A stretch of DNA of 54,135 nucleotides, taken from assembly GCA_949288095.1 (NCBI GenBank), contig CASEIX010000038.1:1-54135 (forward strand), written 5' to 3'. The first letter of the stretch is position 1. Every line of letters begins with the position of its first letter. Origin of the DNA: an uncultured Eubacteriales bacterium (GTDB lineage Bacteria > Bacillota > Clostridia > TANB77 > CAG-508). The notes under the pieces are model-generated. The model did no database searches. It was not told the origin of the DNA and saw only the letters and a program-made list of their open reading frames with translations. Positions 2,396 through 15,052 of this stretch are shown piece by piece. Both the position numbers and the translations under genes were made by a program.

Positions 2396-2462
2396 AGCAA
2401 AATTCATTGATATTTAGCCACTTTCAGTGTTATTCAAAAAAACTGAAAGGAGAACTATTGTT

Positions 2463-3017
2463 ATGGATTTTATACCTTATAAAGTAAATGAATATCTTGA
2501 AAACACTTTTTATCAAGTTCCAAAAGAACTATTTACAAACCCTTATTATAAAAAGCTTAATTCAGATAGTATACTCTTATATGCTCTTTTACTTGATAGA
2601 CTATCTGTTTCTAGAAAAAATGAATGGATTGATGAAGATGGTAATGTATTTTTACTATTTGCAAGAAAAGATGTTGAAAAGAAATTAAAATTATCAGATA
2701 AGACAGTTACTAAAGCTTTTAAACTATTAGCTGAACACAAGCTAATATATGAGAAAAGATTAGGCTTTAGAAAAAAGAATATTATTTATGTTGGAAAAAT
2801 AAATCATGTACCAACTGCAGAAATTATGAATCGTAAAAATTACGACTCAAGAAACGGAGAAACTACGATTCAGGAGTCGGAGAATTTACGATGTAGTAAT
2901 AATAAGTATAATAAGAATAATTATAGTAATACACCCCAGAGAAAAAATTCATATTCAAATTACGAACAAAGAGTTTATGACCCTGAACAATTAGAAAAAT
3001 TATATTGTAATGTTTAG
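2463..3017 (+). CDS. RepA_N-type replication initiator
   Basis: FYQVPKELF..Y..L..DSILLYALLLDRLSVSRKNEWIDEDGNVF is the RepA_N signature; ATG 2463 follows AAAGGAG. Confidence 0.88.
   Translation: MDFIPYKVNEYLENTFYQVPKELFTNPYYKKLNSDSILLYALLLDRLSVSRKNEWIDEDGNVFLLFARKDVEKKLKLSDKTVTKAFKLLAEHKLIYEKRLGFRKKNIIYVGKINHVPTAEIMNRKNYDSRNGETTIQESENLRCSNNKYNKNNYSNTPQRKNSYSNYEQRVYDPEQLEKLYCNV
2828..2931 (+). repeat. Three 23-bp iteron-like repeats plus AT-rich tract inside repA (putative oriV)
   Basis: Units GAATCGTAAAAATTACGACTCAA / GAAACGGAGAAACTACGATTCAG / GAGTCGGAGAATTTACGATGTAG, then an AT-rich run; RepA_N origins typically lie within the gene. Confidence 0.7.
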
Positions 3018-3036
3018 AAAAAGGAGATTTAAAATT

Positions 3037-3429
3037 ATGGAAAATGTAGAATTAAAAGATAGATGTATAGATGAAAAAACAGGAATTGAATATATAAGAA
3101 ATGGTGATTATTATTTGCCAAATCTAGTATTAGCAGAACAAAAGAAAATAAAATTAAACAAATATGGTCGTTTAAGATTAGACTATTTAAAGAACCATAA
3201 AAAAGCAGAATATGCTATTTTATTTATGGATAATAAATTAACAGACCACTTAGAAGAAGTACAAGAAATTGCAACTAAAAGAGTAGAAGAAATTATAAAA
3301 TCATTAAAAGAACAAAGTAATTTAACAGAAGAAATGAAAAATACAGACCAACTTTATTGGGTTGGAATGATGAATAACTTTAAAAACCAAGCTGAAGAAA
3401 TTGTATTAAAAGAATTAATTTATGTATAA
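3037..3429 (+). CDS. tnpV: TnpV family protein
   Basis: YIRNGDYYLPNL, YGRLRLDYLK, WVGMMNN..AEEIV signatures; ATG 3037 after AAGGAG. Confidence 0.88.
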   Translation: MENVELKDRCIDEKTGIEYIRNGDYYLPNLVLAEQKKIKLNKYGRLRLDYLKNHKKAEYAILFMDNKLTDHLEEVQEIATKRVEEIIKSLKEQSNLTEEMKNTDQLYWVGMMNNFKNQAEEIVLKELIYV

Positions 3430-3550
3430 CCTCTATTTCTATTTTAAAAATTTAGGAATTATTAAAGAATAAATTAGCTTTTTTAGGAGAAGAAATTTAA
3501 AATTTTCTTCTCTTTTTTGATGTAAAAAAATTTGAAAGGAGCAAATAAAA

Positions 3551-4042
3551 ATGAGAAATAAAGAATTAAAAGTAACAGAAGAATTTACTAATTTATTTGA
3601 TTATGAATTAGTAATTTATAAAAATATTTTAATAAAAGGAAGAAGTAAAATTACTTTTTATAATTATATTATTGTAACAAGAAAAGGCATTTTTGCAATT
3701 AAAACTAAAACAATTTTAGGTCGAATGGTAACAGATAAATATAAAGTAAAATGGAAATCTTATATAGGTTTTATTCCATTTATTTTTACAAATCCACCAT
3801 TAGATGTTAGTTATAAAAGTTGTGATTTAAATTTTGTTTCAGATTGTGATATGGATAAAATCATTCCAATTTCAATTATAAAAAATAAAGGAAAAAGACA
3901 TTTTTATATCGATATGAATTACACACAAAAAGAAAAATTTTATTATGAATTATACCATCAAGAAGATATATTTTCTGATAAAGAAGTTGCAAAAATTTGT
4001 GAGCTAATAGAGAAAAAATCACTTGTTTTTAGTAAAATTTAG
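3551..4042 (+). CDS. NERD-like (PD-(D/E)xK fold) protein with degenerate catalytic residues
   Basis: IYKNILI...YNYIIVTRKGIFAIKTKTILG follows the NERD pattern IDhlvvt..GifviEtK...G but has N and K at the acidic positions. Confidence 0.55.
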   Translation: MRNKELKVTEEFTNLFDYELVIYKNILIKGRSKITFYNYIIVTRKGIFAIKTKTILGRMVTDKYKVKWKSYIGFIPFIFTNPPLDVSYKSCDLNFVSDCDMDKIIPISIIKNKGKRHFYIDMNYTQKEKFYYELYHQEDIFSDKEVAKICELIEKKSLVFSKI

Positions 4043-4072
4043 TCACACTTAAAGTTGGCACTATTTTGAAAG

Positions 4073-4207
4073 CAAGCATCGCATTTATACTCCCGTATAA
4101 ATACCGCTTGTCAGTTTTAATGTAAAACTGAATTATAGGGAATTACTTCCCCAATCCCCTTAATAATATAAGAATTTTTCTGGCAGTCTTTTAGAGAAAA
4201 GACTGTC
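4073..4207. other. Putative oriT
   Basis: Hairpins ATTTATAC-TCCC-GTATAAAT (4083-4102) inside CAAGC/GCTTG, TCAGTTTTA-ATG-TAAAACTGA (4111-4131) and a hairpin at 4182-4207, directly upstream of mobC; GCTTG resembles MOBP nic contexts. Confidence 0.65.
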
Positions 4208-4225
4208 AATTTTTTGTAAAGGAGA

Positions 4226-4558
4226 ATGAAAATTATGAGAAAAAGAAATATAAAAAAACAGATATGGTTAGATATAAAAGAAGATGAATTATTAAAAAGA
4301 AAATCAAAAGAAGCAGGTTTAAAAGAAGCTGAATTTATTAGAAGTTTAATTAAAGGTTATAGAATAAAAGCACAACCAACTGAAGAAATAAAATCTTTTC
4401 AAAGAGATTTATATGGTATAGCAAATAATATAAATCAAATTGCTAAAGTTGCAAATTCTAGATACAGTGTTTCACACGATGATTATAAATATATTTCAGA
4501 TACTTTATCTGATTTTATTTTAAGATTTGAAAGAAAAATTTATTCAAGACAAAAATAA
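4226..4558 (+). CDS. mobC: MobC relaxosome accessory protein
   Basis: N-terminal ribbon-helix-helix (AGLKEAEFIRSLI) and IANNINQIAKVAN motif. Confidence 0.9.
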   Translation: MKIMRKRNIKKQIWLDIKEDELLKRKSKEAGLKEAEFIRSLIKGYRIKAQPTEEIKSFQRDLYGIANNINQIAKVANSRYSVSHDDYKYISDTLSDFILRFERKIYSRQK

Positions 4559-4572
4559 AAGGAGGTATTTTA

Positions 4573-5904
4573 GTGGCAATTACAAAATATAAAGTTATTA
4601 AGAAAAATTTAGATGCAGTAATAAATTATGTGATGAATGGAGAAAAAACTGAAAATGGTATTTTAGTATCTGCAATAAATTGTATGCCTCAAACAGCATA
4701 TTCTCAAATGATGCTAACTAAAAAATCATTTCATAAAGAAGGTGGTAGATTAGGTTATCATATAATACAATCTTTTAATGGTAATGAAATTTCTCCAGAT
4801 AAATGTAATAAAATTGGAATAGAACTTGCTCAGCAACTATGGGGAGATAAGTATCAAGTTATAATTTGTACTCATACTAATAAGAAAAATGTTCATAATC
4901 ATATCGTTTTAAATTCGGTTTCATTTATTGATGGAAGTAAATATCATAACTCAAATGTAGAAATTGCTTTACTTCGAGAAACAAATGATGACATTTGTAG
5001 GAAACATGGACTATCTATAATTAAAAGCACAAAAGCTACTACAGTATCTGATATATCAAAAAGTAGAATTGCGAATTATAATCGTAATTCTGGAAAAATG
5101 GAACTAATAAAAGCTGATATTGATGAAGCAATTAAAGAAGCAACTAAATACCAAGAATTTATAGATCTATTAGCTTTTAAAGGTTATTATATCAAAAAAT
5201 CTAATGGTTCTATATCTGTTTCTACTCCGTACTATAATAGAAATATAAGGCTTGCTAGAGCATTTGGAGAAGATTATATTTTTGATAATATTAAAACTAG
5301 AATATATCAACCTACTTTATATGATAGATATTTAAAAAGAACTAACAATGAAAAAGTATATAAAGTAAGAATTTATGATGGTATAAAAATTAATCAAGAA
5401 AAATTAAAAACTTCATCTTTTTATAGATTATATGTTCATTATTTATATTTGCTTGGGAAATTACCACCTAAAATTCATTATGAAGAAAGAACAAAAGAAT
5501 ATTATAAAGAAATAGATAGATTTAATAAATTAGCAGATGAAATGAATTTAATATGTACTTATAATTTGGAATCAAAACAAGATGTTCAAAATTTAAGAAT
5601 GAAGTATATTGAAGAAGTTACACCTTTAAAAGCAGAACGAGGAAAACTAAGGCAGTTATATAAGAAAGCTACTAATGAGGCAGATAAAACTATTATACAA
5701 GCTAAAATAGATATTCTTACTGAAGATATTAACAAAATAAACTCTAAAATTCAGACTTGCAAACGAATTATTACTAAAGCTGAAAAAGGCGAAAAAGAAA
5801 CTATTTTAATAAATAATAGAGTATCTGAAAATCAATTAAATAGTGAGCATGAAAATTCACTTAATAAACATAAAAACAAAAACAAACAAGAGCTAATTTC
5901 TTAG
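4573..5904 (+). CDS. MOBP-family relaxase
   Basis: INYV (catalytic Tyr), GYHIIQSF, HTNKKNVHNHIVLNSVS (3H motif). Confidence 0.93.
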   Translation: MAITKYKVIKKNLDAVINYVMNGEKTENGILVSAINCMPQTAYSQMMLTKKSFHKEGGRLGYHIIQSFNGNEISPDKCNKIGIELAQQLWGDKYQVIICTHTNKKNVHNHIVLNSVSFIDGSKYHNSNVEIALLRETNDDICRKHGLSIIKSTKATTVSDISKSRIANYNRNSGKMELIKADIDEAIKEATKYQEFIDLLAFKGYYIKKSNGSISVSTPYYNRNIRLARAFGEDYIFDNIKTRIYQPTLYDRYLKRTNNEKVYKVRIYDGIKINQEKLKTSSFYRLYVHYLYLLGKLPPKIHYEERTKEYYKEIDRFNKLADEMNLICTYNLESKQDVQNLRMKYIEEVTPLKAERGKLRQLYKKATNEADKTIIQAKIDILTEDINKINSKIQTCKRIITKAEKGEKETILINNRVSENQLNSEHENSLNKHKNKNKQELIS

Positions 5905-5915
5905 CTCTGTTAAAT

Positions 5916-6383
5916 TTATTTACTTATATGCAATATTTTGAATATAAAGTTTTTAAATCTAGCAAAAAATGATTCTTTATATTCTATTAACGCTGTATTA
6001 GTATTGTTTTTATATGTTTCTATATTAGTAATTTCTGTATTCTTATTTGCCTTTTTAAATATATCATCTGGATTATATTTTTCTCTTTTTTCTAGTTCTT
6101 CCTTTTTTTGATTTAAATCTAATATTTCTTTTATCTTAACTTTTTGTTCTTCTGTTGCAAAATAATCTCTAAAAAGATTAACTATAATAGCATTTGCTTC
6201 TGGAGAAATATTTTGCTCTGATAAATCAATTTCTGGATTTATTACAAAAACATAATCGTTATCCTTATTATCTTTATAAAATTCTATTTTTTCTTTAGGT
6301 ATTTTATTATATTCTCCTTCTGGAAAATGTTTTATTATCTCTAATACTTCTGTATATGCTTTAGCATAAATTGTATTAATCAT
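5916..6383 (-). CDS. Uncharacterised 'AYTEV..KIP' family protein (partner of upstream repeat protein)
   Basis: Start overlaps the upstream stop by 8 nt; N-terminal ~75 aa align with 13597-13821. Confidence 0.8.
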   Translation of the reverse strand: MINTIYAKAYTEVLEIIKHFPEGEYNKIPKEKIEFYKDNKDNDYVFVINPEIDLSEQNISPEANAIIVNLFRDYFATEEQKVKIKEILDLNQKKEELEKREKYNPDDIFKKANKNTEITNIETYKNNTNTALIEYKESFFARFKNFIFKILHISK

Positions 6384-7188
6384 CTATTTCTTCTCCCTCT
6401 TTTGTGATTTCTGGATTTAATTCTGATTGTTCTACACCATTAGCCTCAGCAGATTTGATTGCTGTAGTCCCTTTTAATGCACTTTTAACAGCAGCTGTTG
6501 GAGTTATCTTTTTACTGTTTTGTTCTTTAACTTTGATTTCCTCTATTGCTTTTTGCATTCTCTCTTGTTCTGATGCACTTTCCATATATTTTGGACTATC
6601 TGAATTACTAAATTCACAAAATGCTTCGTGAACTGCATCTGTATTTCTAATTATAAAACGTTTATCATCTAATAAATCCCATTGCTGTTCATCTGAAAGA
6701 GTATCAAATTCTGGATGCAATAATGCAAAATATTTTTCTACCTTTGCGTGCCACATTGCTTTTTGCATTCTTTCTTGTTCAGTAGCTTTTCCCATATATC
6801 TTGGACTATCTGAATTACTAAATTCACAAAATGCTTCGTGAACTGCATCTGTATTTTCTATTATAAAATCTTTATCATCAAACAAATCCATTTGTTGCCT
6901 TATTGTCATTGAAGAATAACCTGGATGTAATATTTCCATATATTTTTCTACTTTCGCTTGCCACATTGCTTTTTGCATTCTTTCTTGCTCTGATGCACTC
7001 TCCATATATCTTGGACTATCTGAATTGCTAAAAGTAGTAAATGCTTCATGAATTGCATCTGTATTTTCTATTATAAAATCTTTATCATCAAATAAATCCA
7101 TTTGTTGCCTTATTGTCATTGAAGAATAACCTGGATGTAATATTTCCATATATTTTTCTACTTTCGCTTGCCACTCTGCTTGTTCCAT
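6376..7188 (-). CDS. Protein with three tandem 70-aa repeats and a charged C-terminal tail
   Basis: AGGAGG RBS; own promoter TTGTAA-17-TAGTAT (7267-7239); repeats WQAKVEKY...ERMQKAM. Confidence 0.85.
   Translation of the reverse strand: MEQAEWQAKVEKYMEILHPGYSSMTIRQQMDLFDDKDFIIENTDAIHEAFTTFSNSDSPRYMESASEQERMQKAMWQAKVEKYMEILHPGYSSMTIRQQMDLFDDKDFIIENTDAVHEAFCEFSNSDSPRYMGKATEQERMQKAMWHAKVEKYFALLHPEFDTLSDEQQWDLLDDKRFIIRNTDAVHEAFCEFSNSDSPKYMESASEQERMQKAIEEIKVKEQNSKKITPTAAVKSALKGTTAIKSAEANGVEQSELNPEITKEGEEIDD
6544..7173 (-). repeat. 3 x 210-bp in-frame tandem repeat
   Basis: Trp codons (cca on +) at 7171, 6961 and 6751, exactly 210 bp apart; units 1 and 2 nearly identical. Confidence 0.95.
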
Positions 7189-7380
7189 AAAATCCTCCTT
7201 GTTTCACAAATACTATTCTTCATATTTATTATATCTAAATACTACCATAAGAAATTTATTTTTACAATAAAAACTCAAATAATTCTAAAAAATATCGCTT
7301 CAGCAGCAATGAAAAAATCGAATAATAATTCGTTAATAAAGCAAATGAGGTGTTGTAATAAAAATAAAATATAGTAAAAA

Positions 7381-7409
7381 ATGGCATTTACTTTCTAAGT
7401 AAGTGCCAT
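7381..7409 (-). terminator. Intrinsic terminator of the abiE-kinase operon
   Basis: ATGGCATTTACTT-TCT-AAGTAAGTGCCAT stem preceded by an A-run on +. Confidence 0.7.
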
Positions 7410-7414
7410 CTTTG

Positions 7415-8713
7415 TTAAATAACAATTATTGGATCTCCTAATCCTAAATCGTTTCGTTCAAATTCATCATAGTGTTCTTCTAATGAAATAGAGATTTTTT
7501 CTTTTTCTATTATTTTTATTTGATAATTTTCAATGTCTTTTTCAATTTCTTCAATATTCTGATATCTTGATTCTGGTTTATCTGCAAGACATTTTTCAAT
7601 TATTGTATCTAAATTTCTCATATTTGAACTATCATAATTTTTATATAAATGTTCCCTATTTGTTCCTCTAGTAAACATTCCTGTTACATACCATTGAATT
7701 ACTTGTCCAATAGAATATATATCCATTGTTTTTTGTGGTAGAGTTCCTTTAATAGATTGCTCTGGAGGTGAAAAATTTCTATTTCCTAAAAGCTCTCCAT
7801 ATTTTGTATTTCCTGTAAAATCGTAATTTTCAGGATTATAATATGCTATTCCAAAGTCTGAAATAATAATATTTGAACTCTCATCTATTAAAATATTTTC
7901 TGGTTTTAAATCTCTATGAATTATTCCTGACTTATGTACTTCCTTAAAAATCCTACATAGCTCTAGAAATAAATTTATTGCTTTTTCTTCAGTTATATCA
8001 TTATTTTTTAATTGCCCCTTATATTGTTTCATAATGATATAGCTTATTATAGCACCTTCAAACTCTACTTCGTCATACAAATATTGTTCTACAATTCCTG
8101 GGATCTTTTGTAGAGTCATTAATACATTAATAAATTCTTCTTTAAATCGATTTCTTTTTCCTTCATCTTTTTGATATAAAACTTTTATAGCAACATTCTT
8201 TTTGTTCAAAGTACCAAATAATACTCTACCATTCCCACCACTATTTCCATCTGCATAAATATCTGTTATAATTCCATATTTAGTTGTTAATCCTTCTTTT
8301 TGAATCTTTCTACAAAATTGAGTAATGATAGCATTATATTCATCTTGGCTTATAATTTTTTCTTTATTTATTTCTGGTATTACTTGGGTTGAATAACTAA
8401 ACTGATTTTCTTGTTGTGCATTGTTTAGCTGCTTTTCATAACTTGTAAGTTTCTTTTGATTACTTATTATATCTCTCTGCAAATTAGAAATTTCTTTGTT
8501 TAATGTAGCATTCTTTTTAGATAAAGAAGCATTTTTTGATAAACAACTCTTTATTGTTGTATCACTTTTGGTAGTTCTAATCTTTTTATCATTTTCAGAA
8601 ATTTTTCTGTTATTATCGTTTATCTCTTTTTGCTTATCAGAAACTTTTTTATTAAGTTCAGCTATTTTGTTTCGTGTTCTTCCTATATTTGATATTAAAA
8701 TGTCTATATCCAT
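7415..8713 (-). CDS. Hanks-type Ser/Thr protein kinase with N-terminal coiled coil
   Basis: GNSGGNGRV, VAIK, HRDLKPENIL, SDFG, SPPEQ, DIYSIG; ~100-aa heptad-rich N-terminus. Confidence 0.93.
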   Translation of the reverse strand: MDIDILISNIGRTRNKIAELNKKVSDKQKEINDNNRKISENDKKIRTTKSDTTIKSCLSKNASLSKKNATLNKEISNLQRDIISNQKKLTSYEKQLNNAQQENQFSYSTQVIPEINKEKIISQDEYNAIITQFCRKIQKEGLTTKYGIITDIYADGNSGGNGRVLFGTLNKKNVAIKVLYQKDEGKRNRFKEEFINVLMTLQKIPGIVEQYLYDEVEFEGAIISYIIMKQYKGQLKNNDITEEKAINLFLELCRIFKEVHKSGIIHRDLKPENILIDESSNIIISDFGIAYYNPENYDFTGNTKYGELLGNRNFSPPEQSIKGTLPQKTMDIYSIGQVIQWYVTGMFTRGTNREHLYKNYDSSNMRNLDTIIEKCLADKPESRYQNIEEIEKDIENYQIKIIEKEKISISLEEHYDEFERNDLGLGDPIIVI

Positions 8714-8727
8714 ATATTCTCCTTCTT

Positions 8728-9549
8728 TTAGTTTTTAATTGTAGCAATATTTTCAAAATAATTTAAAACATTATCAATAACATCTTTTATAGGTATTTCT
8801 AGCCAATTGTTATTTGCTGTGTTAATTCTTGATTGAAATCTGTTATTGTTTAGAATATTTGTTAATCTGATATGTATATCTTTTAATTCATTTTCACGCA
8901 TTGTTTCATCTTGAAAAATTAAAATATCTATAAATTTTATTAGATTGTCCTTATCTAAATTTTCATTATTAATTAAATAATAAAAATCAAAAATATCTTT
9001 AAATCTTGTAGAAGTAATACCAAATTTTAATAATGATTTTAACTTTTCTACAATTATTTGCTCTTTAGAATTTATTAGTAAGCTAACACTTTCATCAATT
9101 ATATTAAAATCAAAATAGTACTCATCTTGCTCCATATCAAAGTATTTATGAACTCCAATATCTAGTTTAGAACTTATTGAATATTTATTTTTATCAGTTA
9201 GCTCAATATAAACTCTTTTTCCATCATAATCTTGATGATGTAATGGTTCAATCTTTCCAGTAACTTTTATTTTTACACCATCATCTGTATTGTTTAATTC
9301 TTTTATAAAATTAAGAATTGATTTATCTTCCAAAGAATATTTTATAAAGTCAATATCCATATCTCGAGTTGCGCGACGCATATCTTTAGAAATATTATGC
9401 ATTACAACTCCACCTTTTACAGTTATATTCTTATTGTATTTGCTATTTCCAATTTTAAGTAAAACAATATCTTGTGCAACTTTTGGAATTGCATCATCTT
9501 CAGAATAACCTGCTGTTACATATTTATTTACTAATTCATATATATTCAT
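8728..9549 (-). CDS. abiEii: AbiEii-family nucleotidyltransferase (type IV TA toxin)
   Basis: VKGG, RATRDMD, EKL and RFKDIFD motifs. Confidence 0.88.
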   Translation of the reverse strand: MNIYELVNKYVTAGYSEDDAIPKVAQDIVLLKIGNSKYNKNITVKGGVVMHNISKDMRRATRDMDIDFIKYSLEDKSILNFIKELNNTDDGVKIKVTGKIEPLHHQDYDGKRVYIELTDKNKYSISSKLDIGVHKYFDMEQDEYYFDFNIIDESVSLLINSKEQIIVEKLKSLLKFGITSTRFKDIFDFYYLINNENLDKDNLIKFIDILIFQDETMRENELKDIHIRLTNILNNNRFQSRINTANNNWLEIPIKDVIDNVLNYFENIATIKN

Positions 9550-10091
9550 TAAAACACCTCGTCTTGTATTATTTCAAAAATTTTATCTCCATTTACAAAA
9601 TATTGTAAATATTCTTCTATCTTTTGTGTATCTAATGAATTTGCTAGTTTTCTGTAATTAGATATAATTTCTTTATATAAATCATATCCAATTTGATTTT
9701 TGTTTCTAGCTAAATCAATTAGCATTCTTTCTTTGTCATATATATTTATTTTAATTCCTTCATAATTAATTTCGGTTTTTCCTAAATTATATAATTCTTC
9801 TTTCATACGAATTTGTTTTATTTTATTAGAAGATATCATTCTGTTATTTCTATCTGTTGCTAAATATATTTTATCTGGAATAACATCTGTTAAATTAAGA
9901 TAATAATAAGCTGAATAAGAAGTAAATGCTCCATATGGATATTTCTTCATAACAATATCTAAATAATGTACACTAGGCACATCAGAGTATATTCCTTTTT
10001 CAATTTTATATATTTCTTTATTTTCTAAGGCTTTTCTAATTTGATAAGTACTTTTATACTTACTTTTTATTTCACTATGATTATATAACAT
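9549..10091 (-). CDS. abiEi: AbiEi-family antitoxin / transcriptional regulator
   Basis: wHTH with IYKIEKGIY, LTDVIP, IYDKERMLID; TAATG overlap with abiEii. Confidence 0.85.
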   Translation of the reverse strand: MLYNHSEIKSKYKSTYQIRKALENKEIYKIEKGIYSDVPSVHYLDIVMKKYPYGAFTSYSAYYYLNLTDVIPDKIYLATDRNNRMISSNKIKQIRMKEELYNLGKTEINYEGIKINIYDKERMLIDLARNKNQIGYDLYKEIISNYRKLANSLDTQKIEEYLQYFVNGDKIFEIIQDEVF

Positions 10092-10111
10092 ACTTTTTTA
10101 CCTCCAAAAAC

Positions 10112-10164
10112 ATTTTAACCTAATTCGCTCCATAAGTCAATAGTTAGGGAGTGAATTAGGTTAA
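10112..10164 (-). promoter_or_regulatory. abiE promoter with overlapping 17-bp inverted-repeat operator
   Basis: TTGACT(10140-10135)-17-TAAAAT(10117-10112); TTAACCTAATTCGCTCC / GGAGTGAATTAGGTTAA match at 16/17, like AbiEi autorepression operators. Confidence 0.8.
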
Positions 10165-10236
10165 TTTTTTTATTTTAATTATGACACTGAATAGATTGTA
10201 CAAATTCAGTGCCATAGTTAAATTTTTATTATATTT

Positions 10237-11166
10237 TTAATCTATATTTGGTATTTTTACAGAAATTCCATCATCAGTATGTATTACATTACGAGATATA
10301 GTTTTTCCTCTACTTTTATATACATTAGCTTTATTCTTACATTGTGGTGTATCATATTCAGCTTTTGGATTATTCGCGATAAATGCTTTTTCGCAGAAAT
10401 TACATATTTTTAATAATCTAACATCTTGAGCCATTTGCATAGAATAAGATATATCAATAGCTTGTTTTAAATAATTAATTGTAAATCCAAAGCTATTGTT
10501 ATAATATAAATCTTCTATCTTGTGTTCTAAATGATTTACACTTAAAAATGGTAATTTCATTGTTAAATGTTTATTATCTAATGCCCAATAAAAATGCTTA
10601 TACAATGACCTTGCATAATTTAAAACCAATTCAAGTGGTTCTGCATAATGTTCTGAATATATTAAGTATTCATTTATAAAAGATGTTAAATAATCTTCTT
10701 TTCTATTATTGCTAGCTACATCTTTACATTTTTTTATTAAACTATTTATTTCTCTCTTATTTAATTTTGGTAAAAAGAACTTTAAATATTCCTCTGTATT
10801 TATAAAATCTAAATTTTCCTTTCTATTTATATAAAAAGGATCTCGTACAGCTACTTTTTCATCTAATACAAAGTACTTATTTATAGCTAGGTCAATCATA
10901 AATCCAAAAGAGCCATATTTAGCATAGTAATTTAATAATTCAAAATCTTCTATTGGTTCTTTAAAAAATTGTTTTTTTCCTATATTTAATGTTTCAATTA
11001 ATAAATCATCAATATGTTCTGTTATGCTAATAGCTTTCTTAGTTGCTTTTTCTTCTGGCATAGCATATCTTTTTCCATTAATTTCTTCAATTTTATATTT
11101 ACTATAAACATAGCAAAATGGTGATGATTCAAGTCTTAAATTTGTTTTCATTTTATTCACTCCCAA
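10237..11166 (-). CDS. CGNR-like zinc-finger protein (probable regulator)
   Basis: C-terminal LKICNFCEKAFI...YDTPQCKNKANVYKSR resembles zf-CGNR; divergent from xis-int. Confidence 0.6.
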   Translation of the reverse strand: MGVNKMKTNLRLESSPFCYVYSKYKIEEINGKRYAMPEEKATKKAISITEHIDDLLIETLNIGKKQFFKEPIEDFELLNYYAKYGSFGFMIDLAINKYFVLDEKVAVRDPFYINRKENLDFINTEEYLKFFLPKLNKREINSLIKKCKDVASNNRKEDYLTSFINEYLIYSEHYAEPLELVLNYARSLYKHFYWALDNKHLTMKLPFLSVNHLEHKIEDLYYNNSFGFTINYLKQAIDISYSMQMAQDVRLLKICNFCEKAFIANNPKAEYDTPQCKNKANVYKSRGKTISRNVIHTDDGISVKIPNID

Positions 11167-11194
11167 ATTTTTTCAAGAATTTTCTTGTAAGCTA

Positions 11195-11224
11195 TTGACA
11201 AATATAATCAATTGCTGGTAGAAT
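11195..11224 (+). promoter_or_regulatory. sigmaA promoter toward the structured RNA and xis
   Basis: TTGACA-18-TAGAAT with extended TG. Confidence 0.7.
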
Positions 11225-11397
11225 ATTGCTACACAGTAATCGGTTGTGTTGTAAAATCGCTTACCGTTGTGTAGTAATCTTTAGTAGGCTATTGATAGGC
11301 TTCAAGTACTGAATTATACTGATGTAGAGCCATTGATTGTAAGTTATAACAACTTACTTTTTTAACACCTAATCAGTAAGCGATTATCTATAATAAT

Positions 11398-11426
11398 AGT
11401 ATACAACGATTACTAAAAACTGTCAA
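11398..11426 (-). promoter_or_regulatory. sigmaA promoter toward the CGNR-like gene, convergent with the 11195 promoter
   Basis: TTGACA-17-TATACT on the minus strand. Confidence 0.7.
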
Positions 11427-11489
11427 GAGAATTAAATAGAATTCTCAAAAGCACATTGAAAACTGAATACCAAATAGCTAGATACAAAT

Positions 11490-11641
11490 AATGATACACT
11501 TGCATAGCCACAGCTCGAGCGTGAAAAAACCGTCGCAAGCAATGGGTGCAACTCGGACGGAGTCGGAGTGGTGAAATTCCAGTGGAGTATGAAAATACCA
11601 TTTAGCATTGCCCAGAATAGAGGGACAGGAAGAATATCATT
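11490..11641 (+). ncRNA. Candidate structured cis-acting RNA upstream of xis
   Basis: GC-rich island closed by AATGATA/TATCATT; internal TTGCA..CCA/TGG.TGCAA, GAAA-capped hairpins, GCAATG/CATTGC pairing. Confidence 0.6.
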
Positions 11642-11672
11642 CAAAATTTTCACGAAAGGAGGAGTATGTTAT

Positions 11673-11867
11673 ATGGGAGATACAGTTAAAGAACTTCCTA
11701 GATTTTTCTCAACAGAAGATGTTAGAAAAATTTTAAAAATAGGAAATAAAGCCTGTTTAGAATTATTTCATAGAGAAGATTTTCCCTGTGAGAGATTTGG
11801 AAGAGGTTATAGAATTGCAGAAGAAAGTTTTAATGAATATTTTAAAACAAGACGAGTTTACAAATAA
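11673..11867 (+). CDS. xis: Excisionase (HTH_17-like)
   Basis: FFSTEDVRKILKIG..ACLELFHREDFPCERFGRGYRI pattern; AAGGAGGAG RBS before ATG 11673; upstream of integrase. Confidence 0.85.
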   Translation: MGDTVKELPRFFSTEDVRKILKIGNKACLELFHREDFPCERFGRGYRIAEESFNEYFKTRRVYK

Positions 11868-11903
11868 AAAAAGAAGATTTAAATATGCGACATTTAAACC
11901 TTC
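11866..11903 (-). terminator. Hairpin with a U-tract on the minus strand
   Basis: GAAGATTTAAAT/ATTTAAACCTTC (11/12) preceded by A7 on +. Confidence 0.6.
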
Positions 11904-11937
11904 AAATACAATTTTATGTATTTAAAAAACTGAAAGA

Positions 11938-12006
11938 AAAACTATTGCTATAGAATTCCTTAACTGATATAATTATACCATAAAATCCAATTATAGCAAT
12001 AGTTTT
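11938..12006. promoter_or_regulatory. Overlapping sense/antisense promoters within a 15-bp inverted repeat upstream of int
   Basis: AAAACTATTGCTATA/TATAGCAATAGTTTT; + strand TTGCTA-17-TATAAT, - strand TTGCTA-16-TATAAT, both with extended TG. Confidence 0.65.
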
Positions 12007-12039
12007 CCTTAAAATATTACAAAAAGGAGATAACGAATT

Positions 12040-13407
12040 ATGAAATTAAAAGGAATAACTGTTGGCACATATATTTCAAAAAGACCAAAAGGAAAATTTG
12101 ATGAATCAATATGTGCAAGTTGTGAAAATAACAAAAATAAGAACATTGACAAAGAAAAACAATATGAATTATGCAAAGGATGCGATAAGTTTTATGTATC
12201 AAAAACTTGTAAAGCTGTATTAACAACTGGACGAGATCAAACAACAGGTCAAACTCAAAGAAAGTCATTTGTTGCTGATACCGAACAAGAAGCATTAGAT
12301 AAAGCTTTAGATTATAGAATAAATCTAAACAAAAACGGTGGTCCGAGAATTATAACAAAAACAAATAAAACTTTAATAGATTTAGTAAGACCAATGATAG
12401 AAGAACAATTTAAACTAAATAGAATTAAAGAATCCACTTATAAAAGAAAATTAGACACATTAAAACAAATTGGAAACGCATCATTTGCAAGAAAGCCAAT
12501 TGCAAAAGTAACAAGAGATGAAGTAGTTAATTATCTTGCTAAACTAAAGACTTATTCAAAAACAACAATAAAGCAAAATTATGAACTACTATGTATGGGA
12601 TTTGGAGAAGCTTACCATCAGCAAATAATAAATGATAACTTTTTAGATGGTTATAAAAGAATTGAAAAGCCAAAAAGTGAATACAACGGACATCACAGAA
12701 TAGCACTTACAATAAATGAACAAAGAAAGCTAATTCAATTTTTAAATGATGTAGATTATTCAAATTTCAAACACAAATATCTATTTTTGTTATTGCTTAG
12801 TACAGGAATGAGAATAGGTGAAGCTTTAGTGTTAGATTATACTAAAGACATTGATTTAGAAAAAGGAATTGTAATAATTAGAAGAACACAAACTAAAGAT
12901 ACAAAAGGAAAATCTCGAATAGGAGAAACAACAAAAACTTTTTCTGGTCAAAGAACTATTGATTTAAATGATATTAGTAGAAAAGCACTTGAAGATGCTA
13001 TGAACCATATCATTCCAAATAAGTTCCATTTACTATTCTATAATCCAACAAATAAACAATATGGATTATATGAAGAAGCTAGTATTAATTCTGCATTAAA
13101 ACGAGCAGGATTAAAATTAGGAATTGGACTTTATGAAGAAATTAATTCTAAAGGCAAAAAGGTAACAAGAACAGATATACACACTCATATGCTTAGAGGA
13201 ACTTTTGCAACAAGATGTGCAGAAGCAAAAATTGCTCCAGTAGTATTAAAAGAAATATTAGGTCATTCTGATATATCTATTACAATGAAATACTACATTG
13301 ATATAGATACTGATTTTATTAAAGCTGAAAATAAAAGTGTAGTTAATTATTTAATAAATAAAAATATTTTTGGAGTAATACAAGATAAAGACAATCTGGC
13401 TAGTTAA
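12040..13407 (+). CDS. int: Tyrosine recombinase / integrase with Cys-rich N-terminal insert
   Basis: TGMRIGE, HMLR, LGHSDISITMKYY catalytic motifs; CASC and CKGC in the N-terminus. Confidence 0.95.
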   Translation: MKLKGITVGTYISKRPKGKFDESICASCENNKNKNIDKEKQYELCKGCDKFYVSKTCKAVLTTGRDQTTGQTQRKSFVADTEQEALDKALDYRINLNKNGGPRIITKTNKTLIDLVRPMIEEQFKLNRIKESTYKRKLDTLKQIGNASFARKPIAKVTRDEVVNYLAKLKTYSKTTIKQNYELLCMGFGEAYHQQIINDNFLDGYKRIEKPKSEYNGHHRIALTINEQRKLIQFLNDVDYSNFKHKYLFLLLLSTGMRIGEALVLDYTKDIDLEKGIVIIRRTQTKDTKGKSRIGETTKTFSGQRTIDLNDISRKALEDAMNHIIPNKFHLLFYNPTNKQYGLYEEASINSALKRAGLKLGIGLYEEINSKGKKVTRTDIHTHMLRGTFATRCAEAKIAPVVLKEILGHSDISITMKYYIDIDTDFIKAENKSVVNYLINKNIFGVIQDKDNLAS

Positions 13408-13441
13408 AATTATACAAAACTAATAAAAAACATTGGAACTA

Positions 13442-13495
13442 TGCGGAATTTTAAAGCATTTATTACTTTAAATGTTCCGCAAAAGTGTTCCGTAA
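13442..13495. repeat. Integrase arm-type sites, right end
   Basis: Inverted TGCGGAA 13442, TGTTCCGCAA 13473, TGTTCCGTAA 13486. Confidence 0.7.
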
Positions 13496-13557
13496 AATAT
13501 TATACAAACGCTGAAAAGCTTAAAATATCAAAGGAAATAGTACAAAGTGTCGAGTAC

Positions 13558-13569
13558 TCACCTCGACCA
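13558..13569 (+). repeat. attR core (displaced tRNA-Pro 3' end)
   Basis: TCACCTCGACCA followed by the hairpin AAGAGACTT..AAGTCTCTT. Confidence 0.88.
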
Positions 13570-13596
13570 GAAAAAAAGAGACTTTTTACAAGTCTC

Positions 13597-13821
13597 TTAA
13601 TTTGTTTTTAGATAATGAAAATAAATTTGATTAAGTATAGCAATTGTATCATCATCTAAATATTGTTCATCACCAGGAATATATGAATAACTATATGTAT
13701 TACTTTTTCTTCTTTCTATTTCGTTCCAAACTGTTAAGGGTATTTTTTCTCTATCCTTTTTATCCAGACATTTTAAAATGGAATAAACTTCTGTAAGTCT
13801 AGCGGAAATATCATTTATCAT
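13597..13821 (-). CDS. Short 'TEV..KIP' family protein (partner of the ART gene)
   Basis: MINDISARLTEVYSILK..EKIP..EQ..AI aligns with 5916-6383; starts 6 nt after the ART stop. Confidence 0.75.
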   Translation of the reverse strand: MINDISARLTEVYSILKCLDKKDREKIPLTVWNEIERRKSNTYSYSYIPGDEQYLDDDTIAILNQIYFHYLKTN

Positions 13822-13827
13822 TTACTA

Positions 13828-14946
13828 TCACCTATCCCTTTCATTTCTTCTGAAAATACTGCGGATAAAGTCACCAGCTTGTTGTATTTTGTTTCTAAAA
13901 CTTCCTATGTCTTTTTGTCCTCTTGCAATTCCCCAGGTTAGAAAATTAGTAGATTTTAGTTGAGGATACTCGATTGCATATTGAATTTCTCTAAATTTAA
14001 GTTGCAGATATTCTTTAAAGTCATCTTGCCATTTAAAAAATTCTTGTTTTAACATCATAGATTTTTCATCATTGCCAAGAGCATGTGGATTATACTTAAT
14101 TGTCTGACGCCAATGGTTATAATAATTAAATGGTATATCTGATTTTATAATAGACTGCTTTAGTATTTGCATTTTTTCTTTTTCTTTATCAGATAATTTA
14201 CTGCATTTGCTTTGAGAAATATGTACATCATATTCTGTATAGGAATCATATATTGTAGATTTATTATCATAATGAATAGTTAAAAATGGTGGTAATAAAA
14301 CTTCTTTTTCGCCATCTTCACCTCTAAGGGCAGACAAATCTATACAAGGCGTACCTTTTTCTAAAACGCCTTTCATAAAAAGTATATCTTCTTTTCCTTC
14401 AGTAAAATCAAACTTATATTCCCCTTGAGAAAATGACAATAAACTTTCTGTTCTACCAGATTTTTTCATTTCATCAGAAAACATGTCAGAATCTACTCTA
14501 TTAATATGTAATTCTTTATTATTTCGTTTAGCAAATTTACACATTGCAGAATACATTCTACAATAAAGTTCTATTAATTCTTCTGGTTCTGATAAAATAG
14601 ATAAATTGGTTCCTCCATATCTAGGATTATTATATTGAAACAAATCAATTCTATGTAATAATGTTGTTGGGATAAAATATTCGGATCCAGTATATTTTTC
14701 TAATTCTGACCATTCTTCGTCTGTAATACCATATTTTGCTAAGTTCTTTTTTAAGAATTTTTCTTTTTCTTTCATTTCTTTGGTATTAGCTTTTTCGTCA
14801 TATTCAGGATGTATAATTGATGGTGTAGGTGGAATTGAACAAGTAAACGATTCAGTTTCTGTTTGAAAATCTTCTCCTTGTGAATTTATACCATCTGATG
14901 TAGAGTTATCTTGAATATCAATTGGTTTATCTAAGGTTTCGTTCAT
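13828..14946 (-). CDS. Putative mono-ADP-ribosyltransferase (R-S-E class, VIP2/C2-like fold)
   Basis: ITDEEWSELEKYTGSEY (YT..Y helix), HINR, LLSFS, LEKGTPCIDL, GEKEVLLP in canonical order; GGAGG RBS; TTGACA-17-TATGAT promoter at 15030-15002. Confidence 0.72.
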   Translation of the reverse strand: MNETLDKPIDIQDNSTSDGINSQGEDFQTETESFTCSIPPTPSIIHPEYDEKANTKEMKEKEKFLKKNLAKYGITDEEWSELEKYTGSEYFIPTTLLHRIDLFQYNNPRYGGTNLSILSEPEELIELYCRMYSAMCKFAKRNNKELHINRVDSDMFSDEMKKSGRTESLLSFSQGEYKFDFTEGKEDILFMKGVLEKGTPCIDLSALRGEDGEKEVLLPPFLTIHYDNKSTIYDSYTEYDVHISQSKCSKLSDKEKEKMQILKQSIIKSDIPFNYYNHWRQTIKYNPHALGNDEKSMMLKQEFFKWQDDFKEYLQLKFREIQYAIEYPQLKSTNFLTWGIARGQKDIGSFRNKIQQAGDFIRSIFRRNERDR

Positions 14947-15052
14947 AAAGCTACCTCCCCCTTTTTAAATGGTTTATTTTGTCAACAATAATACCTATTT
15001 TATCATACTCTGTTTTATGTAAAATGTCAATTTTTAGGGGAGCGATAAGTAG

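Follow-up and report, generated by a model that had tools for sequence, protein, structure and literature searches.

An unnamed family of small helical proteins encoded behind unrelated genes in one order of gut Clostridia, with a possible role in docking C-terminal tails

Two gene pairs with related downstream genes

We analyzed contig CASEIX010000038.1 of an uncultured Eubacteriales bacterium (assembly GCA_949288095.1). The whole stretch of 54,135 nt, hereafter the window, is contig C38 of a source genome (G000) of 1.74 Mb in 65 contigs with ~26% GC. An initial annotation, made from the letters of the window, had proposed that it holds two two-gene units in which a variable upstream gene is paired with a conserved downstream partner. 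Both units are present at the positions it gave, as judged from the open reading frame (ORF) list of the window (Table 1).

In unit 1, the genes for a 270-aa protein and for partner 1 overlap by 8 nt, with the ATG of partner 1 lying inside the last codons of the 270-aa ORF. In unit 2, a 6-nt gap separates the 372-aa ORF from the 74-aa ORF of partner 2. The two partners thus each start within 8 nt of the upstream stop, as had been noted. The two upstream proteins share no family and no phmmer match, consistent with the proposal that they are unrelated. The same annotation gave each unit its own sigmaA promoter; a strong site (11/12) precedes unit 2, whereas unit 1 has a weak 9/12 site only.

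Table 1. Features of the two units and of the surrounding mobile element (positions in the window)
Feature	Position	Strand	Remarks
Partner 1	5916-6383	(-)	155 aa, full-length member of the unnamed family; ORF, family matches and AlphaFold2 model
Upstream protein 1	6376-7188	(-)	270 aa, three 70-aa repeats and C-terminal tail; few relatives
Tail module of upstream protein 1	6379-6513	(-)	Last 45 aa; tail common to proteins with unrelated bodies
Terminator-like hairpin	5889-5908	(-)	Directly 3' of partner 1
Weak promoter-like site	7368-7397	(-)	9/12, in the 226-nt spacer upstream of unit 1; consensus match
Hairpin after kinase gene	7381-7409		Upstream of unit 1
Partner 2	13597-13821	(-)	74-aa short form, N-terminal domain of the family only
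Upstream protein 2	13828-14946	(-)	372 aa, ADP-ribosyltransferase-like, related to PADLOC RTas1808
Terminator-like hairpin	13576-13598	(-)	Directly 3' of partner 2
Sigma-70-like promoter site	15002-15030	(-)	TTGACA-17-TATGAT, 11/12; consensus match only
Integrated mobilizable element	2427-13559		Carries unit 1; right border mapped, left position (2427) nominal
Relaxase MobA/VirD2	4573-5904		In the unit 1 element; PF03432, E 7e-39
PD-T4-6-like Ser/Thr kinase	7415-8713	(-)	PADLOC, E 3.1e-34
AbiEii	8728-9549	(-)	Complete pair with AbiEi; E 3.7e-62 and 3.3e-104 for AbiEi/AbiEii
AbiEi	9549-10091	(-)	See AbiEii
309-aa protein	10237-11166	(-)	No Pfam, NCBIfam, PHROGs or PADLOC family match
HTH_17	11568-11867		In the unit 1 element
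Tyrosine integrase	12040-13407		Phage_integrase, E 9e-23
RepA_N, TnpV-like, NERD, NikA/MobC			Further genes of the unit 1 element

The partners form one large family of narrow range

Partner 1 and partner 2 align by BLASTP with 30% identity over 77 columns (E 1e-4). The source genome encodes six full-length paralogs, namely partner 1 and those on contigs C40, C48, C28, C58 and C56, in addition to the 74-aa form. When a profile of the six paralogs was compared with the 74-aa protein, hhalign returned a probability of 95.2% (E 2.6e-8, 66 columns), a likeness far beyond chance that bears out the homology claimed at the outset. An hmmsearch over all ORFs of the genome recovered the six paralogs at E ≤1.9e-55 and the 74-aa protein at E 8.2e-8, and no other ORF matched. 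On the basis of these profile comparisons, we assign partners 1 and 2 to one family.

Neither partner matched Pfam (E ≤0.1), NCBIfam, PHROGs or PADLOC, in agreement with the earlier remark that the partner could not be placed in a named family. Partner 1 has 1,614 relatives at E ≤0.01 among 1,634 candidates, and the only name seen for them is 'hypothetical protein'. No Pfam domain was found in the 120 relatives listed, and all 30 nearest Atlas clusters are equally unnamed. An exhaustive profile search returned at least 4,876 clusters at 50% identity with E ≤0.001, and 3,235 with E ≤1e-10.

Among genomes of this order, 29/31 carry the family, with 1-10 matches each. Outside the order, ~490 Bacillota genomes were sampled without a single occurrence: a set of 300 from across the phylum had none, and of 200 genomes scored in a draw over the class, only the source genome and 4/7 of the same order carried the family (0/192 others). 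Named relatives derive from metagenome-assembled genomes of uncultured gut Clostridia from rabbit, deer, sheep, human and chicken. Two loci binned as 'Lachnospiraceae bacterium' (L159) and 'Bacteroidaceae bacterium' (L160) have partners that are 100% identical and upstream proteins that are ~95% identical, which reflects either a mobile element crossing hosts or mis-binning.

The partner is also constrained in sequence. The ratio of nonsynonymous to synonymous substitution rates (dN/dS) is 0.13-0.39 in 20/21 pairs of partners and 0.62 in the closest pair, and the partner is thus under purifying selection. This selection, together with retention in nearly every genome of the order, argues that the partner does something. 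A comparison meant to reveal insulation of paralogs within a genome was uninformative: no within-genome pair exceeds 60% identity (0/115), yet pairs above this level are also rare between genomes (0.3% of 2,586).

The partner is predicted to be helical throughout its ordered parts

The AlphaFold2 (AF2) model of partner 1, with a predicted local distance difference test score (pLDDT) of 82.3 and a predicted template modeling score (pTM) of 0.69, contains four helices within its first 75 residues (4-17, 22-25, 30-39 and 61-75), a long one spanning 78-102 and a terminal one at 139-150. We read from it an N-terminal helical domain (residues 1-75), a conserved KYNPDDIFK stretch and a disordered linker (113-135) ahead of the terminal helix.

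In 70 family members, we took the best 14-mer of the last 22 aa; its hydrophobic moment averages 0.72 and its net charge +4.5. The 95th percentile of the moment elsewhere in the same proteins is 0.51, and the C-terminal 14-mer is higher in 94% of members. By this measure, the partner usually ends in a putative cationic amphipathic helix. Amphipathic helices of this kind target MinD and FtsA to the membrane and, by likeness to these examples, we infer that the terminal helix of the partner may serve in membrane targeting.

Fold searches gave no lead. Profile comparison with PDB sequences reached at best E 0.033 (RalGDS RA domains), which we take as chance. Foldseek comparison of the partner 1 model with the PDB returned nothing at E ≤0.001 (best E 4.2), and in a VIA-align comparison with 48,161 chains a terpene synthase ranked first, ahead of coiled coils, with a Z of 4.6 that is below the meaningful level for helical proteins. 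Within the four family libraries and the PDB, the partner family has no described family or fold; the literature was not searched by sequence.

Three representatives (P0121, P0122 and P0125) contain two tandem family copies in one polypeptide. As for fusions to other domains, only four longer proteins (P0271-P0274) were found at E ≤0.001 among 8,000 scored candidates. Their additional parts correspond to HAD, Abi_2, SBP_bac_3 and, in one case, a region without a Pfam match that carries an HEVTHH motif. All four are single-sequence clusters that probably result from read-through or frameshift.

Partner genes sit tightly behind many unrelated genes

We surveyed the neighborhoods of 84 family members in 31 genomes, 7 of them in the source genome and 77 at related places. 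A same-strand upstream gene is present in 76/84, and it lies within 40 nt, often overlapping, in 59/84. By comparison, 220/575 of all adjacent gene pairs of the same loci are this close, and the gene downstream of the partner is tight in only 26/84 members. The 59 upstream proteins fall into 47 unrelated BLAST groups, and an all-against-all phmmer search for hidden shared domains among them added no links beyond these groups. The proposal of variable genes with a conserved partner therefore stands for the members surveyed.

Among the upstream proteins, 56 are 100 aa or longer; Pfam scans of these identified ResIII/DEAD/Helicase_C in three, Amidoligase_2 in three and Methyltransf_12 in two, with single cases of YidB, LRR_5, AAA_28, CoaE and others. 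No Pfam family is found in more than 3 of the 56, PADLOC matches are few (≤2 members per family), and the bodies, as we call the variable parts of these proteins, reach 1,168 aa. Only a few of the 56 match defense or conflict families, and nothing shows that the upstream proteins are effectors, as had been supposed.

Nor are the neighbors random housekeeping genes, an outcome that the initial annotation had named as one that would speak against its proposal. The lone apparent case is a CoaE-like P-loop kinase of 236 aa that, with its partner, is encoded directly upstream of polA in the source genome (contig C40, 35477-36660; L007). We dropped it as a housekeeping gene and regard it as accessory, given a second CoaE-like gene of 201 aa on contig C11 (28% identity). 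Relatives of the C40 gene occur in only 3/25 genomes of the genus, and its product has ~35 extra C-terminal residues ahead of the partner. At another locus of the source genome (contig C48, 1-3498; L008), the partner gene lies between that of an uncharacterized 308-aa protein, which ends in a hydrophobic segment, and that of a 539-aa protein weakly matching the PD-T4-6 kinase (E 6.3e-6); a divergent XRE-like gene precedes them.

A C-terminal tail travels with the partner

We looked at the swapping of bodies in two partner subfamilies. In the subfamily of partner 1, partners that are 68-92% identical lie behind proteins of 270, 540, 558, 438 and 444 aa, and these five proteins are alike essentially only in their last 47-56 aa. 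Residues 215-270 of the window protein, for example, are 48% identical to residues 485-540 of the protein at locus L129 (E 1e-12). The core of this tail, KKITPxxxxxxAL, has 4 invariant positions in 7 sequences. In the 270-aa protein, the core is predicted to form a short helix (residues 230-241) and is followed by ~30 disordered acidic residues. Three database proteins (P0281-P0283) carry the same tail on other bodies.

In the second subfamily, where partners are 58-86% identical, several unrelated bodies end in a tail of another type, 60-125 aa long. This tail is 37-70% identical over 54-131 aa and is better conserved than the first. One locus of genome G010 (L067, 931-1131) has a free-standing 66-aa ORF consisting of the second-subfamily tail only (LWMNRF..WYS.ID...), 10 nt before the partner gene, and looks like a minimal pair of tail and partner.

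Because unrelated bodies share both tail and partner, and because the partner is constrained, we read the unit of inheritance from these alignments as tail plus partner, with bodies exchanged in frame ahead of it. The tail also appears to be needed on the protein, since it is otherwise hard to see why so many unrelated bodies would be fused in frame to one tail. Over 1,414 pairs with unrelated bodies, tail similarity and partner similarity correlate with a Spearman coefficient of 0.14, a value reached by 11/2,000 label permutations.

In composition, upstream tails are shifted toward polar and away from hydrophobic residues, both relative to other genes in general and relative to other tightly coupled genes. 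Against the latter, the hydrophobic fraction in the last 15 aa is 0.25 versus 0.39 (p 4e-9, n=56/114). We rejected the idea that they form amphipathic helices, as their mean maximal moment is 0.52 versus 0.49 in controls and reaches ≥0.65 in 12% versus 10%.

Part of the terminal charge has a simple source. In both units, the last upstream codons hold the Shine-Dalgarno (SD)-like purine run of the partner, which for partner 1 is GAGGGAG inside the last codons of the 270-aa gene. An SD-like 4-mer lies 3-13 nt before the partner start in 48/59 tight pairs, and in 24 of these it is inside the upstream ORF. The charged C-terminal ends reported for the two proteins are real, but they are partly the embedded ribosome-binding site of the partner read as codons. 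The further claim that these ends form a shared charged export signal did not survive: there is no family-wide motif, only polar composition is common, and the tails are subfamily-specific. One database protein, P0279, is a deletion fusion in which an upstream tail is joined to the middle of a partner at a shared NPEI stretch.

Prediction of a complex between tail and partner

We asked for a complex prediction of the 70-aa tail (7-row alignment) with partner 1 (71-row alignment). The cognate pair scored 0.52, compared to 0.00 for the best of 3 controls; the runs agree in ≥84% of contacts, and partner pLDDT is ≥63. In the calibration of this score, 58/80 solved complexes and 2/110 mismatches reach the mark, and scores ≤0.60 comprise only 7 of those 80 complexes plus both passing mismatches. 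The prediction gave weak support. Together with the co-inheritance of tail and partner, the score raises the odds that the two bind rather than establishing it.

A candidate tail-docking adaptor

Given the homology of the partners, the size and narrow range of their family, their tight downstream position, the swapping of bodies in two subfamilies and the purifying selection on the partner, we favor a reading, at a probability of roughly 0.4, in which each locus is a cassette of a freely exchangeable body, an in-frame and subfamily-specific C-terminal tail of ~45-100 aa and a translationally coupled small partner, and in which the partner is a tag-binding adaptor or escort and not a toxin-specific immunity protein. 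The body would be made first and the tail would emerge last, while the coupled ribosome would make the partner beside it. The N-terminal helical domain of the partner could then dock on the tail of the protein made just before, and in full-length partners the cationic amphipathic helix may bring both proteins to the membrane or to machinery bound to it. Such an escort might serve to localize proteins, to pass them on to a machine for transfer or secretion, or to control their activity. Of the shared chaperone or adaptor first suggested, one part holds up, in that unrelated bodies share a tail traveling with the partner and the complex prediction lends weak support; for the proposed link to secretion, no support was found in the source genome or in the loci examined.

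Several results weigh against the tail-docking adaptor. The correlation between tail and partner is modest (rho 0.14), and a complex score of 0.52 falls in a band where predictions mostly fail unless a good prior exists. Tail dN/dS is 0.38-1.41 in 20/21 pairs and 2.12 in the closest, which is near-neutral over the whole length, and only the 13-aa core is kept; much of the likeness between tails could therefore be shared descent of a DNA cassette and not constraint. No family-wide tail motif emerged from Gibbs sampling (13.5 bits versus 12.5-12.9 in 8 control sets). Among the 84 members, 25 have no same-strand upstream gene within 40 nt, and some gaps may be misjudged, as genes were taken as the longest ORF under a greedy non-overlap rule. 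In one partner clade (L045, L046, L048 and L049), the usual order is reversed: the partner comes first after an integrase, at a gap of ~300-670 nt, and the variable gene follows the partner by 11-37 nt. Neither secretion machinery nor a third conserved gene was found among 757 neighbors of 128 loci. Finally, partner 2 and other short forms have no amphipathic helix, and therefore membrane targeting is not essential to all members.

The near-neutral tails and the missing family-wide motif would also be expected if no protein-protein function existed at all and the partner with its 5' flank were a hitch-hiking cassette landing at the 3' ends of genes, the tail being translated flank. The polar, low-complexity and purine-rich character of the tails is what an AT-rich leader with an SD would give, the junction is seen to recombine in the deletion fusion P0279 and in the 4 read-through fusions, and the CoaE-like kinase with its ~35 additional C-terminal residues before the partner fits such a landing. 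We nevertheless think this account quite unlikely. Repeated in-frame, stop-free fusions of 45-125 codons to unrelated bodies are improbable without selection, the second-subfamily tail is well conserved (37-70% over 54-131 aa), and the KKITPxxxxxxAL core is invariant at 4 positions in 7 sequences. Moreover, the partner is under purifying selection and occurs in 29/31 genomes, and this small all-helical protein shows no likeness, in family or in fold, to nucleases or recombinases that could mobilize it.

The upstream protein of unit 2 resembles ADP-ribosyltransferases

Concordant leads point to the 372-aa protein being ADP-ribosyltransferase-like, as first labeled, although its membership is unproven. 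It matches Pfam ADPrib_exo_Tox at E 0.0022 with 17.8 bits, below the cut-off of 23.4, and its nearest named Atlas clusters are also ADPrib_exo_Tox (score 0.92). INR at 148-150, SFS at 171-173 and EKE at 213-215 follow one another in R-S-E order, and we take this order of Arg, Ser-x-Ser and Glu-x-Glu to be the R-S-E ADP-ribosyltransferase motif. No match was found among PDB sequences.

The protein also matches PADLOC RTas1808 (E 4.8e-18) over residues 116-324, corresponding to profile positions 67-275 of 278. RTas1808 is a protein associated with defense reverse transcriptases. No reverse-transcriptase gene was found among the ORFs adjoining the 372-aa gene, suggesting that the gene is not part of a defense reverse transcriptase system here.

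Orthologs of unit 2 are present in 2/120 further genomes of the order. Their upstream proteins are 99% (G595) and 57% (G553) identical to the 372-aa protein, and in both genomes the upstream gene is followed by a 74-aa partner. Since both keep this length, the 74-aa partner is not a local truncation.

A mobilizable element with defense genes surrounds unit 1

Unit 1 had been annotated as cargo of an integrative mobilizable element (IME), with unit 2 just outside, and the analysis agrees. The element has a relaxase and an integrase and no full type IV secretion system (T4SS), which corresponds to an IME; no T4SS ORFs were found between the relaxase and the integrase in the ORF list. Its right border is near 13559, ~17 nt beyond the terminator of unit 2. 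Unit 2 is placed outside because homology to genome G595, which has a different integrase there, begins at 13559. The site just past the partner 2 terminator is an integration hot spot: in G595 (L120, 1-1229), a unit 2 that is 99% identical adjoins another tyrosine integrase. The partner 1 gene is convergent with the gene for the MobA/VirD2 relaxase.

The 270-aa protein of unit 1 is rare, with only 9 relatives among 5.8 billion proteins and none in 120 other genomes of the order. Its three repeats of 210 nt (70 aa) span 6501-7130 with a DNA identity of 70-88%, and its AF2 model (pLDDT 73) is all-helical, consisting of helical repeats, a short helix at residues 230-241 and a C-terminal stretch, residues 240-270, whose pLDDT below 50 we read as disorder. 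A fold search with this model was uninformative, with designed helical repeats as the best Foldseek match (E 0.48).

The cargo of the element is a small defense island (7415-10091, minus strand) of the PD-T4-6-like kinase and the AbiEi/AbiEii pair. Beyond it lies the gene for a 309-aa protein, and a cluster resembling this protein by eye (not aligned; for example L085, 3856-4722) occurs near partner genes in 4/128 loci. Positions 5916-7250, or part of them, occur in 20 listed sequencing runs from 11 studies, mostly of chicken, bird or gut metagenomes. The library kind of these runs, where given, is marked probable DNA (3 have no library kind), and no RNA run is among those listed.

Mobility genes recur elsewhere in the family. 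Among the 757 neighbor proteins, a Mob_Pre relaxase cluster (one member checked, E 3.8e-44) is found in 14 of the 128 loci, a large serine recombinase in 13, TnpV in 5 and a tyrosine integrase in 4, along with several uncharacterized proteins. Mobile elements therefore carry part of the family, in keeping with the suggestion that it spreads partly by IMEs.

A role as a secretion chaperone

Residence on IMEs bears on the idea, raised with the initial annotation, that a T4SS, or else a type VII secretion system (T7SS) or type IV pili, exports the upstream proteins as effectors by means of a charged C-terminal signal, with the partner as secretion chaperone. The family is enriched on mobilizable elements that need a helper T4SS, as seen from Mob_Pre in 14/128 loci and from the convergent relaxase of unit 1, and a tail with an escort suits the logic of secretion chaperones. 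The source genome has three TraG-D_C coupling-protein-like genes. Helicase, methyltransferase, ADP-ribosyltransferase and amidoligase bodies recall the enzyme set of polyvalent proteins.

We found no link to a T4SS, T7SS or type IV pilus. In the source genome, neither a WXG100 gene nor an AAA_10/VirB4 match above the cut-off was found, and none of the three TraG-D_C genes lies beside a partner. Across the loci examined, no partner gene adjoins a gene of a T4SS or T7SS. Many copies are chromosomal without mobility genes, for example beside polA, alaS, rnc or a radical-SAM gene; the family is seen in one order only, which would be unusual for a T4SS accessory; and the terminal charge is partly SD-encoded. 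Export of this kind is, in our judgment, improbable.

A role as a promiscuous antitoxin

The main rival to a tail-docking adaptor is a promiscuous antitoxin or regulator of the Panacea/PanA type, in which the partner would neutralize, sequester or destabilize growth-arresting or defense enzymes, and the units would be toxin-antitoxin (TA) or abortive-infection modules. Two adjacent, near-overlapping genes, on mobile DNA in the case of unit 1, are the generic layout of type II TA systems, and the units are in addition bounded by terminators, present in multiple copies and often located on mobile elements. Unit 1 lies by AbiE and a PD-T4-6-like kinase, upstream protein 2 is ADP-ribosyltransferase-like with a match to a family associated with defense reverse transcriptases, and the genes ahead of other partners encode the CoaE-like P-loop kinase, methyltransferases, amidoligases and an AAA_28 protein. 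Like many antitoxins, the partner contains a disordered segment, and the pairing of a single antitoxin domain with many toxin folds has a precedent (PMC8832971, PMC10440598).

According to PMC8832971, the single antitoxin domain Panacea occurs with at least 88 toxin domain combinations and spans 27 bacterial phyla. This contradicts the earlier argument that conservation of the partner rules out a function in immunity or as an antitoxin. Nonetheless, many of the bodies are poor toxin candidates, such as those of up to 1,168 aa, ResIII/DEAD helicases, leucine-rich repeat proteins and the many helical bodies without an enzyme domain. Recognition of a tail alone would not directly block dozens of active sites. 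Pfam scans of the partner returned neither Panacea nor any other antitoxin domain, its model matched no DNA-binding fold, and PADLOC matches among the 56 upstream proteins are few, with at most 2 per family. Weighing both sides, we consider an antitoxin role unlikely.

Comparison with known systems

Panacea (DUF4065) is similar in that one conserved small domain occurs in two-gene operons with dozens of unrelated partners, often mobile and in multiple copies (PMC8832971). In contrast, the partners here have no DUF4065 match (Pfam, E ≤0.1) and their family is seen in one order, and the variable proteins share a partner-linked tail and are in many cases large and not toxin-like.

The cassettes of CdiA-CT/CdiI, Rhs and LXG also swap modules at a fixed in-frame junction beside a small downstream gene. 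Their N-terminal part is constant, and the C-terminal toxin and the immunity gene vary together. Here the polarity is reversed: the N-terminal body varies, and the C-terminal tail and the downstream gene stay constant. Co-variation of immunity protein and toxin is not what we see, as partners that are 68-92% identical stand behind dissimilar bodies, and the second subfamily behaves likewise.

Adaptors that bind a conserved handle on variable cargo are known from type VI secretion (T6SS; DUF4123 and DUF1795/Eag) and from the T7SS (Lap1/Lap2 of LXG toxins). Their genes lie upstream of the cargo, they bind handles at the N-terminus, and the secretion systems that they serve are known. The likeness lies in a conserved small gene beside polymorphic cargo genes; the differences are that the handle here is C-terminal, that the partner gene is downstream and often overlapping, that no secretion system is linked and that there is no Pfam match.

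The export chaperones FliS, FliT and FlgN and the proteolytic adaptors SspB and SocA are small helical proteins that bind a disordered or helical segment at the C-terminus of their client. The partner has no sequence match to them, and structure comparison gave no telling match (Foldseek best E 4.2; VIA-align best Z 4.6, below the meaningful level for helical proteins). Unlike the clients of flagellar chaperones, those proposed here are unrelated enzymes and not flagellar parts.

Polyvalent proteins of phages and conjugative elements (PMC5512222) are proposed to enter recipients with the DNA. Their enzyme domains, of the helicase, methyltransferase, ADP-ribosyltransferase and amidoligase kinds, form a repertoire on mobile elements that resembles the bodies here. 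They are single giant multidomain polypeptides, whereas the bodies here are separate, each with a tail and a partner, and no LPD domains matched in the Pfam scans of partners and upstream proteins. The architecture can be described as a mirror image of polymorphic toxin cassettes and as an analog of adaptor-marked effectors and of Panacea.

Implications

A wider version of the tail-docking adaptor, which we put forward as speculative and rather doubtful, is a lineage-restricted 'tag and adaptor' form of protein sorting in gut Clostridia, in which dozens of unrelated proteins, mostly from mobile elements, would each gain one of several interchangeable C-terminal docking tails, and a small adaptor made by translational coupling would bind the tail and use its amphipathic helix to deliver the cargo to the membrane or to an export, transfer or packaging machine. 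If true, this would be a new principle of cargo addressing in Gram-positive bacteria, with the partner gene as a marker for finding cargo. If the tail-docking adaptor itself is correct, the rule would be a shared tail and a cognate partner for addressing or controlling foreign proteins; if the partner is instead an antitoxin, it would be a second 'universal' neutralizer beside Panacea. The partner gene could in either case serve as a genomic flag for hundreds of unrelated and mostly uncharacterized proteins, some of which resemble conflict enzymes of the ADP-ribosyltransferase-like, helicase, methyltransferase, amidoligase and P-loop kinase kinds.

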